A DNA stretch of 64,000 bases, taken from the NCBI RefSeq assembly GCF_988242995.1, contig NZ_OZ547043.1; one strand, given 5' to 3'. The position numbers and the translations under genes are program-made. Of this stretch, positions 37,541 to 48,300 are shown piece by piece. Position 1 is the stretch's first letter; each line of letters opens with the position of its first letter. Below the pieces are notes generated by a model. That model made no database searches. It saw only the letters and a list, made by a program, of their open reading frames with translations, and was not told where the DNA came from.

Positions 37541-37623
37541 GTTAGATGATGGCATTCTCACTCCAGCCAGAGCCACCAACTCTGGGCTGCAAAGTAAAAA
37601 ACCGACGCGAAGTCGGTTTTTTT
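37541..37623 (+). ncRNA. agrA: AgrA small RNA (dinQ antisense-repeat sRNA) with intrinsic terminator
   Basis: Repeat gttagatgAtggcattctcactccAgccagagccaccaactc... shared with dinQ 5' region and agrB, ending in aaaaaaccgacgcgaagtcggttttttt; ends approximate. Confidence 0.65.
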
Positions 37624-37775
37624 ACGTCCGGATTCGGACAAGGCCTGGTACGGCAGCGACCCGATGAAAGTATATAAATCCTCTTTCACCAACATGTATA
37701 GCAAACTGTCCCTTCGCCAGCTGAAGAAATCGCTAACGCTTGCAATGTTAGCCACTGGCTAATAGTATTGAACCG

Positions 37776-37858
37776 TTAGATGTGGGCATTCTCACTCCGG
37801 CCAGAGCCACCAACTCAGGGCTGGAAAGTAAAAAACCGACGCAAAGTCGGTTTTTTTA
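37776..37858 (+). ncRNA. agrB: AgrB small RNA (antitoxin sRNA for dinQ) with intrinsic terminator
   Basis: Second copy of the repeat; gttagatgtgggcattctcactccggccagagc is identical to the segment at 37341-37373 in the dinQ leader; ends approximate. Confidence 0.65.
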
Positions 37859-38009
37859 CGTCCTGATTCAGACCTCCTTTCAAATGAATACCCAACTCAA
37901 AATTCACACCTATTACCTTCCTCTGCACTTACACATTCGTTAAACCATATATGTTTTTGACTTATCCGATTCGAAGAGAGACACTACCTGCAACAATCAG
38001 GAGCGCAAT

Positions 38010-40147: not shown

Positions 40148-40175
40148 AAAGGGGGATATGCCCCCTTATTTGTTC
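40148..40175. terminator. hairpin terminator between convergent arsC and the ArsR-like gene
   Basis: aaggggg-atat-ccccctt followed by atttgttctt. Confidence 0.6.
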
Positions 40176-40486
40176 TTCGTGGCCCCTTCGCCATGTGTTT
40201 TGCTATTTACGCAGCACTCCTCGCGTAAGAATTCAATTATCGCTTCCAGCATTGCGTATTGCGAAACACACATCAGCGTTCGACTCTCACGGTTTTGTTT
40301 GACCAGCCCTACCGATACCAGTGCTGAAATATGGTGACTGAGTGTGGAGCCGGGTATCCCAAGCTGCTTTTGCAACTCACCGACCGGCAAACCTTGTTCC
40401 CCCGCTTTGACCAGGTGTTTGAATATGAACAAACGGGTCGGGTGACCTAGCTCTTTCAGCGCTTTAGCAACTTCTTCCAACTGCAT
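40166..40486 (-). CDS. ArsR/SmtB-family HTH regulator (second copy, atypical; C-terminal Cys pair)
   Basis: 106 aa; N-terminus ALKELGHPTRLFIFKHL typical of ArsR/SmtB; lacks the ELCVCDLC site but has EECC near the C-terminus. Confidence 0.75.
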   Translation of the reverse strand: MQLEEVAKALKELGHPTRLFIFKHLVKAGEQGLPVGELQKQLGIPGSTLSHHISALVSVGLVKQNRESRTLMCVSQYAMLEAIIEFLREECCVNSKTHGEGATKNK

Positions 40487-40508
40487 ATGACACCCCCTTT
40501 GTCTGGTT

Positions 40509-40569
40509 GATATTTCGATAATACCAGAAATATCTTGATCTGAATTTTATTTCGATTATTCTGGAAATA
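40509..40569. promoter_or_regulatory. two similar inverted repeats (GATATTTC-N10-GAAATATC and TATTTC-N10-GAAATA) in the divergent promoter; candidate operators
   Basis: Read directly at 40509-40534 and 40548-40569. Confidence 0.45.
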
Positions 40570-40593
40570 TAGATTTAATCAATGAGGTTGCGT

Positions 40594-41595
40594 ATGAATA
40601 GTTGGCTTGCGATGCTGCAAGATGCCGCAGAGATGTTTGTGTTTCTCGCCGTTGAGCTTTCTTTGCTGTTTATAGTGATTAGTGCCGGTGTGAGCCTGAT
40701 AAGACAAAAGGTGCCAGACCATAAAATCCAGCAGATGATGGGGGCCAGAAAAGGGAGAGGTTATCTCCTGGCTGCTCTGTTGGGAGCCGTTACCCCGTTC
40801 TGTAGTTGCTCGACAATCCCCATGTTACGTGGATTGTTATCAGCGAAAGCCGGGTTTGGTCCGACCCTCACTTTTTTATTTGTTTCACCGCTACTTAATC
40901 CCATTATCGTCGGGTTAATGTGGGTGACTTTTGGCTGGAAAGTTACCTTGTTGTACGCGATTATCGCCGCCGGCGTCTCCGTACTTGCCAGTATTATCCT
41001 GGATTCTCTGGGATTTGAACGTCATATCATTGCCAGTAAAAGCTCATCAGCAAATTGTTGTGCTCCAGCCAAAACTTCGCCAGGGACGACATATACGCCC
41101 ATAAAAGTGAGTTGCTGTAGTCCAGCGGCTAAAGTCATTGAGAAACCCGCAGTTAACTGTTGCAGTACCAAAGCAGTGGCAAGTATTAATCCCATAAAAT
41201 TAGCCATTAAAGATGCATTGCAGCAGTTTAAAGACGTACTGCCATATCTTGTGTTAGGGGTATTACTAGGCTCTTTTATTTATGGCTTTATCCCCTCACA
41301 GTGGATTGCCGCTCATGCAGGGGCAGATAATCCCTTCGCCATCCCGTTGAGCGCCGTTGTCGGTATTCCGCTGTATATCCGGGCAGAGGCGGTTATCCCT
41401 CTGGCATCAGTTCTGATGACGAAAGGCATGGGTCTGGGGGCATTAATGGCATTAATCATCGGCAGTGCCGGAGCAAGTCTGACGGAAGTGATATTACTTA
41501 AATCAATGTTCAGAATACCGATGATAGTTGCATTCCTGACGGTTATATTAGGTATGGCTATCTTGATGGGCTATTTGACTCAAATGCTATTTTAA
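40594..41595 (+). CDS. ArsP-like permease (putative organoarsenical/metalloid efflux permease) with TPFCSCS motif and Cys-rich loop
   Basis: Polytopic membrane protein; TPFCSCSTIP motif as I recall from ArsP; central soluble loop with three CC pairs; start at ATG 40594 (SD gagg) preferred over 40582. Confidence 0.65.
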   Translation: MNSWLAMLQDAAEMFVFLAVELSLLFIVISAGVSLIRQKVPDHKIQQMMGARKGRGYLLAALLGAVTPFCSCSTIPMLRGLLSAKAGFGPTLTFLFVSPLLNPIIVGLMWVTFGWKVTLLYAIIAAGVSVLASIILDSLGFERHIIASKSSSANCCAPAKTSPGTTYTPIKVSCCSPAAKVIEKPAVNCCSTKAVASINPIKLAIKDALQQFKDVLPYLVLGVLLGSFIYGFIPSQWIAAHAGADNPFAIPLSAVVGIPLYIRAEAVIPLASVLMTKGMGLGALMALIIGSAGASLTEVILLKSMFRIPMIVAFLTVILGMAILMGYLTQMLF

Positions 41596-42174
41596 ATAGA
41601 TGCCAGCAGTAAACTATAAGGAGCATTGTGAGTGCCTTATCCTTCTGAGTAGAAAATCATAGATAGGATAATCCTTAAAAATCACAAATAACTTAACTAA
41701 TGCTTTGAGAATGATGACGGATCCGTCAGTAAGTCATCAATCGACAATCACCACGCAATCATGCTTCTCTGACATTTTATCGGAGAAGCAATGTCTCTTT
41801 GTTTCAGTGCTATCCCCCCTTTTAAAGGGCAGATTTCAGTCGCCAATACAACACATTTTTAAATACACTTTAACCTGGTTCATTATTACACATCTAAAAC
41901 ATCACAAAAATATCACTTCACACACTATCGGTGAACATCATAACTTTTTAAAATGAGCGCTTTTTGATAGTTGTTAACGTTTTCCTTTACGATACTATCA
42001 CTGCCCTTTTTTTATACACAAATATTACCGGGTGGAAATGAAAGGGAAGTTAAAGGTAATTATATCAGGAAGATATGACGCATTGTGTTTATTTCCGCGT
42101 AGAAGAAAATCCATTCCTGCTCTAATTCTCCGATTTAAAAAATTTAGCGAAATAGATGAACAATAAGGAATGTT

Positions 42175-43398
42175 ATGTCAATTGACTTTACCCCAGGTAT
42201 GATAAATACATATCACGGCGATATTTATAACCGCACAACAGATACCGACAATGTTAAAACACCAGACACACCGATGTGGCCTTGTGATAATCAGGAAGAA
42301 CAGCAACCCATTAATTTTTCATTGTCTGAAGAAGGATATAACGCTGAACAATTTGATTTAGCGCAACAACAACTCCAACAAATTAATGCGTGCCACACGA
42401 ACACTACATATACAAATGCAGACTACTCAAAAGTTGTGGCTCAACTTGTAAGTCTTATTACTAACATTGAAACGATAAGTTCGACACCACTTACGCAACA
42501 GACACAATCAATACTTAATCAGATTAATAACATTAGATACGAAAAAAACAAAAGTGCTGAATGTCGAATCATTGTTGTCGCTAATCCTAAACCCGACAAG
42601 GCAATCATAACTAAAATTAGCGTAGAAGAGGGAATACCAGTAAGATTCAGTGTCCAAACCATGTTTTCAGATACTAATTTTATTGCTGAACAACAGGCTG
42701 ACTTACCTACTAATATAAAAGATATTCAAAACCTGTATCAAAAAATGACGAAGTTATATATTGAGCACAGTGAAAATAAAAACAGGATGAAAGTCTTTGC
42801 CGGAACCAACTTTATTGATTTCAATATGACAGGACAGAACCTGTCCGGGTTCGTTCTAACCTTGTCAAGGTTTTATTTCGAAGATCTACTTAATATAAAT
42901 TTCACTGACGCAAATTTAGGTGACACTATTTTTTCACATAAAGAACACCCTACCCCAAAATTATATAAAGACGAACAATATCTTGACAAACAAATCGAAG
43001 GTTTATTTTCAACATTATTAACCATTAATGACAACTTTTTACGAGCAAAAGCGGAAATTGCTTCGACAATAATTAAATTCTTAGAGGCCAGGATAACCAA
43101 TATTTCATACAATGACATATTAAAATATCAGCAAGAATTCAAAAAACAATGTTATAAGCAAGTTAAAGCCTTTACGACACTCTCCCGATACAATAAAATT
43201 CAAACATGGGCAGAAATGTCTGAATATCAATTCGAAGTATTTCAATACGAGACGCTTAACCCAAAAAAAATGTCATACGCACCTTATTTAAAGAGATCGC
43301 TACCTGATGAAAAAACTATAAATTATGGGGTGGAAATAGAAACACCATCTGGCAAAAGAATTCGCTTATCAAATCATTACCAGAATATAATCCCATAA
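42175..43398 (+). CDS. yhiS: uncharacterized protein YhiS, apparently intact (407 aa)
   Basis: Position between the ars region and slp; AT-rich, Asn/Ile-rich soluble protein. Confidence 0.6.
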
Positions 43399-43642
43399 TA
43401 TGAACATTAGCACTTTATAATCATTGAATAAAAATAGATTTTATGTACCTTTAAAAAAAGGCTATTTTATGGGGCGATGGATACTCATGTCACGCCCCAA
43501 AATTAACAGAATTAAACTAAACAGAAGGGATATAAACATCAGACAGGTTTACGTTACTATCAGGCATATCGCCTCAGAATCAGATGAAAACTATAAAGAA
43601 ATATCTATTATGGTTTTAATATTTGTTGATAAGGATAGTAAC

Positions 43643-44209
43643 ATGAACATGACAAAAGGTGCACTCATCCTCAGCCTTTCATTTTTGCTTGCCGCATGTA
43701 GTTCAATTCCGCAAAATATCAAAGGCAATAACCAACCTGATATTCAAAAAAGTTTTGTTGCTGTTCATAACCAGCCGGGGTTATATGTTGGTCAACAAGC
43801 GCGCTTTGGTGGGAAGGTTATCAACGTTATCAATGGCAAAACGGATACGTTGTTAGAAATCGCTGTATTACCGTTGGATAGCTATGCGAAGCCTGATATT
43901 GAAGCCAACTATCAGGGCCGACTGCTCGCCAGACAAAGCGGCTTCCTTGATCCAGTGAACTATCGTAATCACTTTGTTACCATCCTCGGTACCATTCAGG
44001 GTGAACAACCTGGCTTTATCAATAAAGTCCCGTATAACTTCCTCGAAGTGAATATGCAGGGCATCCAGGTGTGGCATTTGAGAGAAGTGGTTAATACCAC
44101 CTATAACCTGTGGGATTACGGCTATGGTGCATTCTGGCCGGAACCGGGCTGGGGTGCGCCTTACTACACCAACGCGGTGAGTCAGGTAACACCTGAGCTG
44201 GTCAAATAA
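43643..44209 (+). CDS. slp: starvation-inducible outer-membrane lipoprotein Slp (188 aa)
   Basis: Start at MNMTKGALILSLSFLLAAC (lipobox LAAC); ORF-track upstream extension rejected. Confidence 0.9.
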   Translation: MNMTKGALILSLSFLLAACSSIPQNIKGNNQPDIQKSFVAVHNQPGLYVGQQARFGGKVINVINGKTDTLLEIAVLPLDSYAKPDIEANYQGRLLARQSGFLDPVNYRNHFVTILGTIQGEQPGFINKVPYNFLEVNMQGIQVWHLREVVNTTYNLWDYGYGAFWPEPGWGAPYYTNAVSQVTPELVK

Positions 44210-44952: not shown

Positions 44953-45981
44953 TTATGCAGTAACGACTTCCGGTATCAGCGAAGCAATTTGCTTACGCCA
45001 TTGCGCTTGCTCCTGTTCGCCTTCTGTACGTTGACCATAAAGTTGCGCTATCTGCGTACCATCATGGGCAAACAATTCCAGACTGGTCACATAACCGTCA
45101 CTAGCAGGCTTACGGGTTACCCAGGTTTCAGCAATGCTCTCTTCTAATAGATGAAGAGTAAACGTCGGGTTAAAAATATTCAGCCAACTTTTCATTGGCA
45201 CCACTTTTTCTACCACGCCAGTGAAAATCTGTACGCAGCCACGGTTGCCAACAAACACCATGATTTCATTGCCATCCTGCTGTGCAGATTCAAGAATTTG
45301 CGCCAACGCACTGTTGGATACTTTGCAGGCCAAATCGTCTGCCACCAGATTGAACGCCTGTTGGCGCGTCAGGTTGTGGCGCTTGAGCAACGTAAAAAAC
45401 TGATGAACGTCGGTCATCGCCCGCCACTCTTGCTCAACCACACTGGCATCGGCTCGCATTTGAACGACTGGCGCATCACCGGCTTTTAACTCAAGCGACG
45501 TATTCTCATCGGTGATAAACCGTGCCAGAAGCTCACTCCATGCCGCCATATCGGTATTGTCGGTGGCATAAACTTTTAGTAATGCATCGCCCTGATGATC
45601 AAAGAACTGAATACTCTGACGTTCGCCACGAGTCGTATTTTCTTTGATGTGGAAAACACTGGCCCATTGATTGAGAAACAGACGCAAATCCAGCGCGCGT
45701 GGATTGAGGATCAATCCGGCATGTCCGTTCAAATGCTGGTTTGTGAACGCACCAACTTGCTCATGGACTGCATATTCATTACGGCAAATACATTTGGTCT
45801 CGCCAACACTTTCGAGCGCCGCCAGAATGTCACGGATATCGCCGCACATCCGCCACGCATCGTGCGTGACGCGCGCAAATGCCAGTTCTGCTTCGCTAAT
45901 ATTCATTAAACCTGCGATGTCACGCGCGTACTTTCCGGGATTTTGTTCTTTTAACTCAAGCCAGCGTGTGTAGTGGTTCAT
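44953..45981 (-). CDS. chuS: haem oxygenase / haem-degrading protein ChuS
   Basis: 342 aa; follows chuA in the same orientation. Confidence 0.85.
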   Translation of the reverse strand: MNHYTRWLELKEQNPGKYARDIAGLMNISEAELAFARVTHDAWRMCGDIRDILAALESVGETKCICRNEYAVHEQVGAFTNQHLNGHAGLILNPRALDLRLFLNQWASVFHIKENTTRGERQSIQFFDHQGDALLKVYATDNTDMAAWSELLARFITDENTSLELKAGDAPVVQMRADASVVEQEWRAMTDVHQFFTLLKRHNLTRQQAFNLVADDLACKVSNSALAQILESAQQDGNEIMVFVGNRGCVQIFTGVVEKVVPMKSWLNIFNPTFTLHLLEESIAETWVTRKPASDGYVTSLELFAHDGTQIAQLYGQRTEGEQEQAQWRKQIASLIPEVVTA

Positions 45982-46029
45982 TGTCTCTCTTCCTTCCAGA
46001 TAAATGCCCCGAAATATCGGGGCAGATGA

Positions 46030-48012
46030 TTACCATTGATAACTCACGAAAATTTTTCCATTACGACCATCCTGTGGGATGCCTTGCGGCGACCAGTACT
46101 CTTTGTCGAAGGCGTTGCCCAATACCAGAGTAGTGGTCATACCTTTGAGCGCCTGCTGCCCTTGATAACTGACGTAGAAATCATTCACACCATAGCCAGG
46201 TTGTTTGCTGTAGCTGCTGCTGATATGTGTTGAGCGATCGGCAAACGTACCGACCCAACCAACAGAGAAGCCACTGTGAGCGATCGGAATATTCAGGGTA
46301 CTGGTAACGGTATCCGGGTTAATGCTGGAGATATATTCCCCGGTATCGGTGTCTTTGCCGCGGGTACGGTTATAGGCCACATCAAGGCTAAACAGATCAG
46401 TGGTATATTTCGTCATCACATCCCAACCCCAGATTTTGGCGTTCGGGACGTTATACGACATAGTTGTCGCCGCCGCGAAATCGACGGTCGTGGAGATGTA
46501 ATCCTTCGCTTTGGTATCAAAGTAGCTGGCTTTAAATTCCAGGGCATCATTGGACAACATCAGGTCATCAAAACGCAGCCCAAAACCGTACTCCTGAGTT
46601 TCGTTAGTTTCCGGACGTAAGTTCGGGTTTGGCACCCAATAGTTGGTATAGAAGCGACCAATCGAGAAGTGCTTAGAATCGTTATACATTTCGCCCATCG
46701 TCGGGGCGCGGAATGCCTGGGCATATGAGCCAAATAACATCAGCCAGTTGGTCGGGTTGATAGTCATCCCCGCACGAGATGACCATTTGTCAGCATCAAC
46801 ATCTTTGTAGCCGTCGCTGCTACCGCGATAACTGTCATAGCGGGTTCCGCCAAGCAGGGTAATCGGCAGATCGCGTAAGGTGATCTCATCCTGTAGCCAG
46901 CCAGAGCTAAAATCGATTTTTGCTTGCGGGAAGCCCGTCGTCGCGCCGCCCGGATGTTGTTCCTGACGATAATACTCACCGCCATATGTCAGTAAGTGAG
47001 AAGCGAAACTGTCGGCAAATAGAGTGGAACGGTTCTCCAGCCTGGCTCCTTTTGTTATCTGTTCACGATACTCGCCGGAACTCCCCGTGTTTTGCGCATT
47101 AATACGGACTTCCGACCAGTAAATTTTTGCATCTGCATTTAACCAGTCGTTGCCCTGCGGGGCGAGTTTATAAGAAAGCTGCGCATCGCGTTGAATTGTT
47201 GAACGATCAACCATCGGGTTGCTGCTATCAGAAGCTTCAACGGTCTGCGGATTTTTTGGTTCACGCGCGTCGTTGTTGTAGTAACGCACTAAACCGCTCA
47301 GAGACTGGGCTGAATCAATTTGCCAGGTCCCTTTCGCCAGCATGTTATTAATGGACTCGTCATTCGGCGTGGTTTCACCATTGCTCTGGCGTAAATCACC
47401 CCGATCGCGACTGGACCAGGCCACAATACCATCCAGATTTTCAGTTCGCCCAAACGCGCTCGCGCCTAATCCCAGGCTATGGTCCCCCGTGCCGCCAGTA
47501 CCAAAGACACGAAAACCACTACTTTGTCCTTCCTGCAATAAATCTTTTGCATCGACCGTATCGTAGGAGATCACTCCACCCAGCGCGCCACTGCCATACA
47601 GTAATGCTGAAGGTCCGCGAACAATCTCAACACGCTTGATCAGCGCCGGATCAAGAAAAGTACCATTCAGGTGTCCGGTATCCGTTCCCTGGCGAACACC
47701 ATCGACAAGAACCAGCACGCCGCGATGATCATAGCCACGCATATTTACATCCTGACCGTTGGTTCGTCCGGTACCATCAAGAGTAATTCCAGGAACATGA
47801 CGCAGCAGATCGGAGGCTGAAGTAGCCGTTTGATTTTCAGGAGCGGAAGTGTCGATGACGCTGACCATCATAGGCGCTTCGAAGGAACTACGGGCATTCC
47901 CCGTTGCCGTAACGGTCATGGTTTCAGTAGCAAAAGCAAACGTTGGCAAGGTGGCAGAAACAGCCAAAGCCAACAAACTCAAACGCAACGAGGTAAATTG
48001 CGGACGTGACAT
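46030..48012 (-). CDS. chuA: TonB-dependent outer-membrane haem/haemoglobin receptor ChuA
   Basis: 660 aa; signal peptide, TonB-box-like ETMTVTA, C-terminal ...KIFVSYQW terminal Phe/Trp beta-barrel signature. Confidence 0.92.
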   Translation of the reverse strand: MSRPQFTSLRLSLLALAVSATLPTFAFATETMTVTATGNARSSFEAPMMVSVIDTSAPENQTATSASDLLRHVPGITLDGTGRTNGQDVNMRGYDHRGVLVLVDGVRQGTDTGHLNGTFLDPALIKRVEIVRGPSALLYGSGALGGVISYDTVDAKDLLQEGQSSGFRVFGTGGTGDHSLGLGASAFGRTENLDGIVAWSSRDRGDLRQSNGETTPNDESINNMLAKGTWQIDSAQSLSGLVRYYNNDAREPKNPQTVEASDSSNPMVDRSTIQRDAQLSYKLAPQGNDWLNADAKIYWSEVRINAQNTGSSGEYREQITKGARLENRSTLFADSFASHLLTYGGEYYRQEQHPGGATTGFPQAKIDFSSGWLQDEITLRDLPITLLGGTRYDSYRGSSDGYKDVDADKWSSRAGMTINPTNWLMLFGSYAQAFRAPTMGEMYNDSKHFSIGRFYTNYWVPNPNLRPETNETQEYGFGLRFDDLMLSNDALEFKASYFDTKAKDYISTTVDFAAATTMSYNVPNAKIWGWDVMTKYTTDLFSLDVAYNRTRGKDTDTGEYISSINPDTVTSTLNIPIAHSGFSVGWVGTFADRSTHISSSYSKQPGYGVNDFYVSYQGQQALKGMTTTLVLGNAFDKEYWSPQGIPQDGRNGKIFVSYQW

Positions 48013-48040
48013 AGCGATTCTCCATGAGGAAAATAAAAAA
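48013..48040 (-). promoter_or_regulatory. FourU-type RNA thermometer hairpin sequestering the chuA Shine-Dalgarno
   Basis: mRNA 5'-UUUUCC-UCAU-GGAGAA-3' about 7 nt upstream of the chuA AUG; U-tract pairs with GGAG. Confidence 0.6.
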
Positions 48041-48300
48041 TGCTGGCTGCCTGGGTTAATACCGGGGTGGCTGGCGAAAAATAAATTTATTTAAAATTCA
48101 GAGCGATAATATTCGCCGGGTGAGTTTACAGGCGTTTATATCCCATGAAATTGCCTGGTATCTCGGCAAATACGCAAAAGCACGCCCTCTTTGTCAGGCA
48201 AAACGATATGCCCCATCAGGAGTGAAGAGCGCTGTGCGTTATCCCTTGCAAATGCTATGGTTTTGTTATCCATATGGTCGTGTTTTGTTAAGCGCGAACG

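Follow-up and report, generated by a model that had tools for sequence, protein, structure and literature searches.

The open reading frame (ORF) at positions 42175..43398 (plus strand) of the window, the 64,000-nucleotide stretch of DNA analysed here, is most probably an intact ancestral allele of yhiS (b3504 in K-12, Z4907 in O157:H7), a chromosomal protein-coding gene restricted to Escherichia coli, Shigella and unclassified Escherichia. The alignments described below show it to be the gene that is split in K-12 by an IS5 element at a TTAG target. In addition, comparison of its alleles shows that purifying selection has kept the 407-codon frame across proteins that differ by up to 38%. Intact yhiS is a common condition of a known orphan gene and is already catalogued, and the disruption in K-12 has been documented; the finding has little value as a discovery, since the intact gene is frequent and the exact protein is public.

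The yhiS locus and its counterpart in K-12

The continuous 407-codon ORF that a sequence-only reading of this DNA had reported at the yhiS position was confirmed (ATG start, 407 codons plus stop in the ORF listing), between arsC, an ArsR-like regulator and a permease on one side and slp-dctR on the other. Its ATG lies 5 nt downstream of AAGGA (42165..42169, plus strand), a Shine-Dalgarno-like motif that was read from the sequence and would presumably act as such. The gene order of the region is gor, dinQ, arsR, arsB, arsC, an ArsR/SmtB-type regulator gene (40166..40486, minus strand), an ArsP_1-family permease gene (40582..41595) that directly precedes yhiS, yhiS itself, slp (43643..44209, plus strand) as the next gene on its 3′ side, and dctR, after which chuS/chuA lie on the opposite strand. 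Orthology is borne out by this arrangement, since here as in K-12 the gene lies between the ars genes on its 5′ side and slp-dctR, which follows directly on its 3′ side, with the same orientation. The earlier reading had placed yhiS next to slp within the acid fitness island. The adjacency to slp holds, but the gene sits immediately upstream of slp and outside the slp-to-gadA interval. One STEC genome comparison has likewise placed the O157 orthologue Z4907 at the border of the acid fitness island and not among its members (PMC9729726).

The description of the gene as AT-rich was also accurate, with a G+C content of 33.9% for the ORF, well below that of most flanking genes. Low values (0.32-0.36) extend across approximately 41500 to 43750, whereas most flanking genes have about 0.50 and the adjoining permease 0.43-0.47. 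The AT-rich region upstream of yhiS (41867..42174, plus strand; G+C 0.35), which starts at a homology boundary, is common to K-12 and O157:H7. A promoter scan upstream of the gene returned 13 sites versus 10.1 ± 3.2 in shuffled sequences, that is, no enrichment.

The identification as yhiS depends on homology to the two K-12 fragments, and both were found to match the window at 93-95% nucleotide identity: the 5′ fragment aligns to 41867-42920 (93.2%) and the 3′ fragment to 42916-43672 (94.9%). The disruption of the K-12 gene by IS5, mentioned in the earlier reading, was confirmed as well. The element lies inside the gene in K-12 derivatives, and previous works have included yhiS in the loci that IS5 interrupts in K-12/BW25113, as a pseudogene of an uncharacterised protein (PMC11677980, PMC8170033, PMC1174868). 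The annotation of a K-12 derivative shows at this locus two partial "hypothetical protein" pieces flanking the IS5 transposase gene. The K-12 IS5 measures 1195 bp and is inserted at TTAG with the usual 4-bp duplication; its junctions with yhiS read ...AAATTTAG followed by GGAAGGTGCG... and ...CACCTTCC followed by TTAGGTGACACT, and the gene across the element reads ...AAATTTAG-IS5-TTAGGTGACACT... The corresponding TTAG in the window (42916..42919, plus strand; ORF nt 742-745) is single-copy and unoccupied. When IS5 and one TTAG were removed in silico from the K-12 gene, 407 codons with no internal stop were recovered, encoding a protein 91.9% identical to that of the window. K-12 yhiS (b3504, UniProt P37635; fragments yhiS-1/yhiS-2 around IS5 insH-11) thus corresponds to the same gene at the same arsC-slp locus, with 95.6% nucleotide identity. 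The window differs from K-12 in the absence of IS5 and in the retention, upstream, of the ArsR-like regulator and the permease, of which K-12 keeps only remnants.

The presence or absence of this IS5 copy has consequences for the stability of the region. In evolution experiments, the element in K-12 yhiS has mediated a 14-kb deletion that removed the gad island entirely (bioRxiv 10.1101/063271), and IS5-mediated deletions of 1.4 kb (arsC-yhiS; PMC7260982) and 20.8 kb (yhiJ-yhiS; PMC11633386) have also been described in K-12. As yhiS carries no IS5 here, the strain lacks the hotspot for IS5-mediated deletions found in K-12 next to the acid fitness island, a hotspot that repeatedly removes neighbouring acid-resistance genes in such experiments.

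Frequency of intact alleles and recurrent inactivation

The exact 407-aa protein is present on 217 contigs in a public protein collection, where one source names it YhiS. Sensitive blastn detected yhiS in 5416 of the 5426 complete E. coli genomes, in every case on the chromosome and in no more than two pieces per genome. Sixty of the 5416 genomes with a match, sampled at regular intervals along the blastn ranking, were then classified by the state of the gene. A colinear copy of 1224 nt was present in 22 of them; 16 carried a copy of 1223 nt and five a copy of 1222, 1225 or 1226 nt; two had an IS1 insertion, four were K-12 derivatives with IS5, and 11 retained the first ~379 nt only. All nine colinear 1224-nt copies fetched from other genomes were fully open, and all seven fetched copies of other lengths were frameshifted. 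On these counts, about 37% of the sequenced complete genomes would carry an intact yhiS, with a rough 95% range of 25-50%. The allele of the window is less common, with identity of at least 99% in only 19 genomes. The gene is colinear in all of the best 25 blastn matches to it, and the nearest genome, NY1601, shows a single synonymous difference. An intact allele is also carried by NEBExpress, a laboratory derivative of the B strain. K-12 and O157:H7 are consequently poor references for yhiS, and an intact allele, either that of the window or that of the B-strain derivatives, would be a better choice for the study of YhiS.

The lesions found in other genomes are diverse. Frameshifts have occurred in four homopolymer tracts of the gene. 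An A7 tract (42542..42548, plus strand) shows length variants of +2, which shifts the frame, and of +3. A T6 tract (42929..42934, plus strand), which is T7 in K-12-type alleles, has undergone in several genomes a -1 slip that leads to a stop at codon 282. An A6 tract (43141..43146, plus strand) carries a +1 frameshift in strain 14EC001, and an A8 tract (43263..43270, plus strand) is reduced to A7 in O157:H7 and others, yielding a 371-aa form. Insertion of IS1 was observed in three cases, at three different sites. In O2:H1 HM670, the one B2-type genome examined, ~0.9 kb equivalent to 42554-43466 is gone and the first ~379 nt of yhiS are kept; this segment (42554..43466, plus strand) is present in the window. 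The slip in the T run recurs on allele backgrounds that are 47-48 substitutions apart, and one frameshifted copy equals the intact B-strain allele with zero other substitutions, which argues that the frameshifts are recurrent and that some of them are either very recent or assembly errors. Taken as they stand in the assemblies, these lesions (slips in A/T runs, IS1, IS5 and the 0.9-kb deletion) show that yhiS has been inactivated many times independently, with the caveat that sequencing error could account for some of the single-base frameshifts where the assembly comes from long reads.

Among the short forms, the 371-aa protein is found on at least 1000 contigs. The O157:H7 copy (Z4907 / WP_001303709.1, 371 aa) is an orthologue at the same locus, 95.3% identical to the window in nucleotides. 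It has A7 where the window has A8 (43263-43270), and the resulting frameshift exchanges the final 39 residues for three (ending KKCHTHLI), in contrast to the window, which keeps the full C-terminus. Automatic annotation treats these forms inconsistently, as an intact copy is flagged "frameshifted" and the truncated 371-aa form passes as normal. The PGAP "frameshifted" flags on the yhiS of NY1601 and on the K-12 3′ fragment were discarded as annotation artefacts, both being in frame on translation; it is suspected that the PGAP reference for the gene is the 371-aa form.

Horizontally acquired, AT-rich, H-NS-associated orphan genes of E. coli form a class that decays through IS insertion and frameshift. 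yhiS resembles this general class in its low G+C content, its listing among "promoter islands", its targeting by IS1 and IS5 and its patchy integrity (PMC3661553), and differs from it in that its frame has demonstrably been selected over deep divergence, so that yhiS is more than junk DNA. A study of H-NS complexes with "promoter islands" tabulates the K-12 arsC/yhiS and insH-11/slp regions among these islands (PMC3661553), the first of which corresponds to the AT-rich region upstream of yhiS in the window (41867..42174), and yhiS has been cited as a high-affinity StpA site (bioRxiv 10.64898/2026.02.10.705075). Because the AT-rich K-12 locus is reported both as an H-NS-associated "promoter island" and as a StpA site, yhiS is probably little transcribed under ordinary conditions. 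In K-12, where the gene is disrupted, over-expression of YdeO had no effect on yhiS and raised slp-dctR more than 3-fold (PMC4222967), and neither deletion of yhiS nor ASKA over-expression of the disrupted copy changed the chlorhexidine MIC (PMC8170033). The gene may be dispensable in most niches, which would explain its frequent loss. As a separate observation, a dN/dS of about 0.4-0.6 together with loss in about 60% of the sampled genomes would also be compatible with a gene that has ceased to matter.

Allelic divergence and selection on the frame

All named homologues of YhiS in a collection of 5.8 billion proteins come from E. coli, Shigella or Escherichia sp. There, the alleles fall into classes of approximately 96-98, 91-93, 85-88, 82, 77 and 62% identity to the protein of the window, nearly all of them with 407 aa and the most distant with 410. 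Even the 62% allele is found at the same locus (arsC, yhiS, slp, dctR, chuS). In agreement with this narrow range, a scan of 1.84 billion representatives with an allele profile recovered one full-length 50% cluster and its fragments, and a peptide-pattern scan of the GTDB species representatives revealed no relative. Among named Escherichia species beyond E. coli/Shigella no yhiS was found, the other carriers being unclassified "Escherichia sp.". A DNA pattern built from the most conserved 3′ stretch had a sole match among the GTDB representatives, a 409-bp contig of 0.77x coverage in an "Ensifer" assembly, which was set aside as evident contamination. A phage search with yhiS gave no match, and the three "plasmid" matches obtained turned out to be chromosomes of 4.8-4.9 Mb mislabelled in that collection, with no genuine plasmid match among them.

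The suggestion that the uninterrupted gene is the ancestral form, together with the conservation check proposed along with it, can be addressed with these alleles: a frame of 407-410 codons is kept from 98% down to 62% amino acid identity, and no deep class is truncated, not even that of the 410-aa allele, which occupies the same locus. Pairwise dN/dS values for yhiS range from 0.34 to 0.65, and non-synonymous changes in the deep pairs are far below the neutral expectation (binomial p from 1.7e-7 to 5.9e-15). Random placement of the 172 differences to the L016 allele (86% identical), with the from-to spectrum of the observed differences kept, left the frame open in 0 of 5000 trials; for the 97 differences to the L014 allele, the frame stayed open in 0.16% of trials. 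As the frame is open across the alleles and almost never after random placement, it follows that it has been selected and that full length is ancestral. The full-length proteins share the conserved C-terminal stretch INYGVEI..GKRIRLS.HYQNIIP and, on this comparison of alleles, shorter forms such as that of 371 aa are derived.

It has to be considered whether yhiS is a relic, once coding and now neutral everywhere, that this strain simply has not yet disabled. We regard this as unlikely, although it accounts for a number of observations: approximately 63% of the 60-genome sample is disrupted, by at least seven kinds of lesion; the dN/dS of yhiS exceeds the 0.08-0.17 calculated for arsC, dctR and chuS; the frameshifted copy with zero substitutions relative to an intact one points to very recent loss; and the K-12 locus is reported to be associated with H-NS and StpA (PMC3661553; bioRxiv 10.64898/2026.02.10.705075). 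Nevertheless, neutral change would close the frame, as seen in the 5000 trials, and the frame has been kept across a dS of 0.3-0.6. Moreover, pN/pS falls to about 0.2 in the core segment of the protein, and each of the nine colinear copies from other genomes is open. An intact gene kept by past purifying selection, and lost in many lineages, is the reading that we prefer.

The preferred reading also has to accommodate a high rate of change. Between the window and L020, the genome that carries the 62% allele, dN and dS are 0.21 and 0.62 for yhiS, 0.019 and 0.20 for arsC, 0 and 0.04 for slp, 0.002 and 0.03 for dctR, and 0.006 and 0.04 for chuS. Identity between both genomes is 90-98% in the ars region, drops to 70-79% over yhiS and recovers to 98-100% within ~200 nt past the stop codon. 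Comparison of E. coli alleles with one another reveals an alternation of fully identical (100%) blocks and blocks of 84-85% identity, a pattern indicative of recombination mosaics in yhiS. By contrast with this divergence, the Slp protein is identical (one accession) in 17 of 18 sampled genomes with an intact slp, the K-12 derivative carrying another. These substitution estimates show yhiS to be mosaic and to evolve several times faster than its neighbours. Low codon bias raises dS, and since part of the high dS of yhiS is expected on this ground, balancing selection is not claimed. The fast mosaic evolution and recurrent loss of yhiS beside a nearly invariant slp provide a modest lead for population geneticists.

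The YhiS protein and its possible role

Residues 208-257 of YhiS (42796..42945, plus strand) form a segment that resembles pentapeptide repeats, with ten consecutive pentads in which F, M or L occupies every fifth position, mostly preceded by N or D. This segment lies in the most constrained part of the protein, where pN/pS is 0.18-0.25 over residues 197-296. Comparison by hhalign of residues 208-261 with a genuine pentapeptide-repeat protein gave 93.1% probability (E 3e-7, 54 columns). When the allele profile was run with hmmsearch against the 1.84 billion representatives, larger proteins matched residues ~204-280 alone (E 9e-9 to 6e-4), and all ten of those scanned were genuine pentapeptide-repeat (PF00805) proteins. 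In addition, a PDB profile search returned Rfr32 (2f3l; E 0.006) and also TL15 (3n90). The Pfam Pentapeptide model scores the YhiS of the window below its gathering threshold (12.0 versus 20.2 bits) and matches 35 of 38 YhiS alleles, in all cases sub-threshold (best E 0.037); searches of Pfam, NCBIfam, PADLOC and PHROGs with YhiS gave nothing above threshold. AlphaFold2 models built from alignments of 17 and 38 alleles had mean pLDDT values of 44.7 and 32.5, respectively, and drew the repeat segment as low-confidence helix/coil, with no beta-helix. Foldseek comparison of the better model, itself of low confidence, with the PDB yielded nothing at E ≤ 0.001.

YhiS thus shares pentad periodicity and profile similarity with the pentapeptide repeat proteins (PF00805; Rfr32, 2f3l; the thylakoid protein TL15, 3n90), and differs from them in having only ~10 repeats, the remaining ~350 of 407 aa matching nothing. 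Such a core of about 10 repeats would suffice for ~2.5 turns of a right-handed beta-helix, presumably flanked by helices. A simple hydropathy check detected neither a signal peptide nor a membrane segment (maximum Kyte-Doolittle 19-residue mean 0.99), and the protein is predicted to be soluble and cytoplasmic. In known proteins, the pentapeptide-repeat module provides a rigid binding surface and is not an enzyme. By this analogy, YhiS would most likely be a non-enzymatic binding or adaptor protein.

A more specific role has been considered on the basis of the divergence pattern, namely that YhiS is a protein specific to Escherichia whose core consists of pentapeptide repeats and which might be involved in an antagonism, be it with a host factor, with a phage or with a competing bacterium; we hold this to be very improbable. 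If it were true, selection would keep several very old recombining allele classes (62-98%) beside a near-invariant slp, outright loss of yhiS would have been repeatedly favoured (K-12, O157:H7, B2-type genomes), and strains with an intact allele would carry an activity that is absent from the standard laboratory and pathogen references. A related proposal, an arms race in which YhiS acts, for example, as a secreted effector, an antigen or a phage target/sensor, so that its alleles would diversify and the gene would be discarded once it turned into a liability, is in our opinion very unlikely. The dN and dS of yhiS against L020, far above those of slp, dctR, chuS and arsC, would fit such a scenario, and so would the sharp identity boundary just past the stop codon, the mosaic alleles and the repeated losses, as well as a polar N-terminus modelled with very low confidence. 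Furthermore, some type III effectors, e.g., PipB2 and NleL/EspX7, contain pentapeptide repeats. A structural study of NleL has been published (PMC3013003). However, the pN/pS ratio does not reach 1 in any sliding window along yhiS (maximum 0.77, residues 337-376), and the high dS is, as mentioned above, partly expected from low codon bias. YhiS matched no effector or defence model in PADLOC, PHROGs or NCBIfam; with regard to type III effectors with pentapeptide repeats (PipB2, EspX/NleL, SopA), none of the NCBIfam or Pfam effector models was matched. In the PDB profile search, which was taken up to an E value of 1, only Rfr32 and TL15 appeared, and no chain of NleL, SopA or PipB2. Lastly, the NEBExpress allele is intact, and laboratory derivatives of the B strain are not known to have a working type III system.

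The frameshifts in the A7, T6/7, A6 and A8 tracts, together with the same T-run slip on different allele backgrounds, might also suggest a phase-variable contingency gene toggled by slippage in its A/T runs, an explanation to which we attach hardly any probability. Shuffling of codon order showed that runs of at least 6 nt (6 observed versus 3.6 ± 1.7 expected, P 0.13) and of at least 8 nt (1 observed versus 0.5 expected, P 0.40) are no more frequent in yhiS than in the codon shuffles, and an evolved phase-variation mechanism was rejected on these grounds. Besides, no tract is longer than 8 nt, and the A7 form is fixed across O157:H7, as the many contigs with the 371-aa protein attest, instead of flickering. 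Being A+T-rich, yhiS simply offers many slippery runs and IS targets.

Finally, a chance open frame in non-coding, AT-rich, horizontally acquired DNA, which the orphan nature of the protein, devoid of Pfam, NCBIfam or structural matches above threshold, might bring to mind, can be dismissed almost outright: the base composition of yhiS predicts a stop every ~14 codons and a probability of ~6e-14 for 407 codons without one, the longest stop-free stretch in 1000 shuffles of 41600-43640 averaged 82 codons (maximum 174) against the 412 observed, alleles that are 62-98% identical retain both the frame and its length, and dN is significantly below dS.

Divergence around the 3′ end of yhiS

Comparison of the window with L020, a locus from another genome that carries the deepest yhiS allele class, reveals an abrupt shift in divergence at around 43400-43600. 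While identity between the two sequences is 90-98% in the ars region and 70-79% in yhiS, it reaches 98-100% in slp, dctR, chuS and chuA, starting just past the yhiS stop codon. In addition, the Slp protein is nearly uniform: among the 18 sampled genomes in which slp is intact, 17 share the accession WP_001057453.1, and the protein of the K-12 derivative has another accession. Together, the jump in identity past yhiS and the near-uniformity of Slp suggest that the slp-chu segment was recently exchanged between lineages or swept through them.

Within yhiS itself, the highest nucleotide conservation across all allele classes is found in the final ~45 nt (43354-43398; ORF nt ~1180-1224), where it extends to synonymous sites and includes a run of 17 invariant bases. 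This conservation could reflect a recombination boundary or, alternatively, a regulatory element of slp that overlaps the end of the gene.

Gene content on either side of yhiS

The interval between arsC and yhiS harbors two divergently arranged genes (40166-41595), encoding an ArsR/SmtB-type regulator (40166..40486, minus strand) and an ArsP_1-family permease (40582..41595, plus strand) in which paired cysteines are abundant in one loop. A remnant of this pair, ~62 nt in length and equivalent to 40198-40259 of the window, is found in K-12 and in O2:H1 HM670, the one B2-type genome examined, and O157:H7 contains a 55-nt match to it. A second remnant, of 30 nt, is present in O157:H7 and HM670 (equivalent to 41212-41241). 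On the basis of these short remnants, the regulator-permease pair appears to have been lost by deletion in the K-12, O157:H7 and HM670 lineages and kept in the window strain.

Downstream of slp, dctR is separated from the hde/gad genes by the chu cluster for haem uptake (chuS, chuA and the genes after them; 44953-48041 onward), an arrangement shared with O157:H7 and HM670 but not with K-12. Rfam places the shuA/chuA 5′-UTR thermoregulator at 48010-48041 on the minus strand. Elsewhere in the window, two AgrB antisense RNAs adjoining dinQ (37542-37625 and 37776-37859), STnc490 (20623-20746), ES205 (57713-57784) and GadY (63564-63677) score above the Rfam gathering score, all of them expected as usual occupants of this E. 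coli region.

Annotation and database records of yhiS

RefSeq labels for yhiS are inconsistent between intact and truncated copies. The intact 407-codon gene of NY1601 (L001 6001-7224), the genome nearest to the window allele, is labelled 'frameshifted', as is the K-12 3′ fragment despite being in frame, while the truncated 371-aa form of O157:H7 (loci L010 and L021) is annotated as an ordinary protein. We suspect that the truncated form serves as the annotation reference.

The conserved yhiS 3′ end was also detected in the 'Ensifer sp. MPMI2T' assembly, on contig NZ_SRXN01000179.1 (L025), which is 409 bp long, has a coverage of 0.77x and is almost certainly E. coli contamination. Finally, yhiS is present in three plasmid-collection records of 4.8-4.9 Mb (NZ_CP134663.1, NZ_CP141089.1 and NZ_OL790696.1), which are evidently chromosomes wrongly labelled as plasmids.
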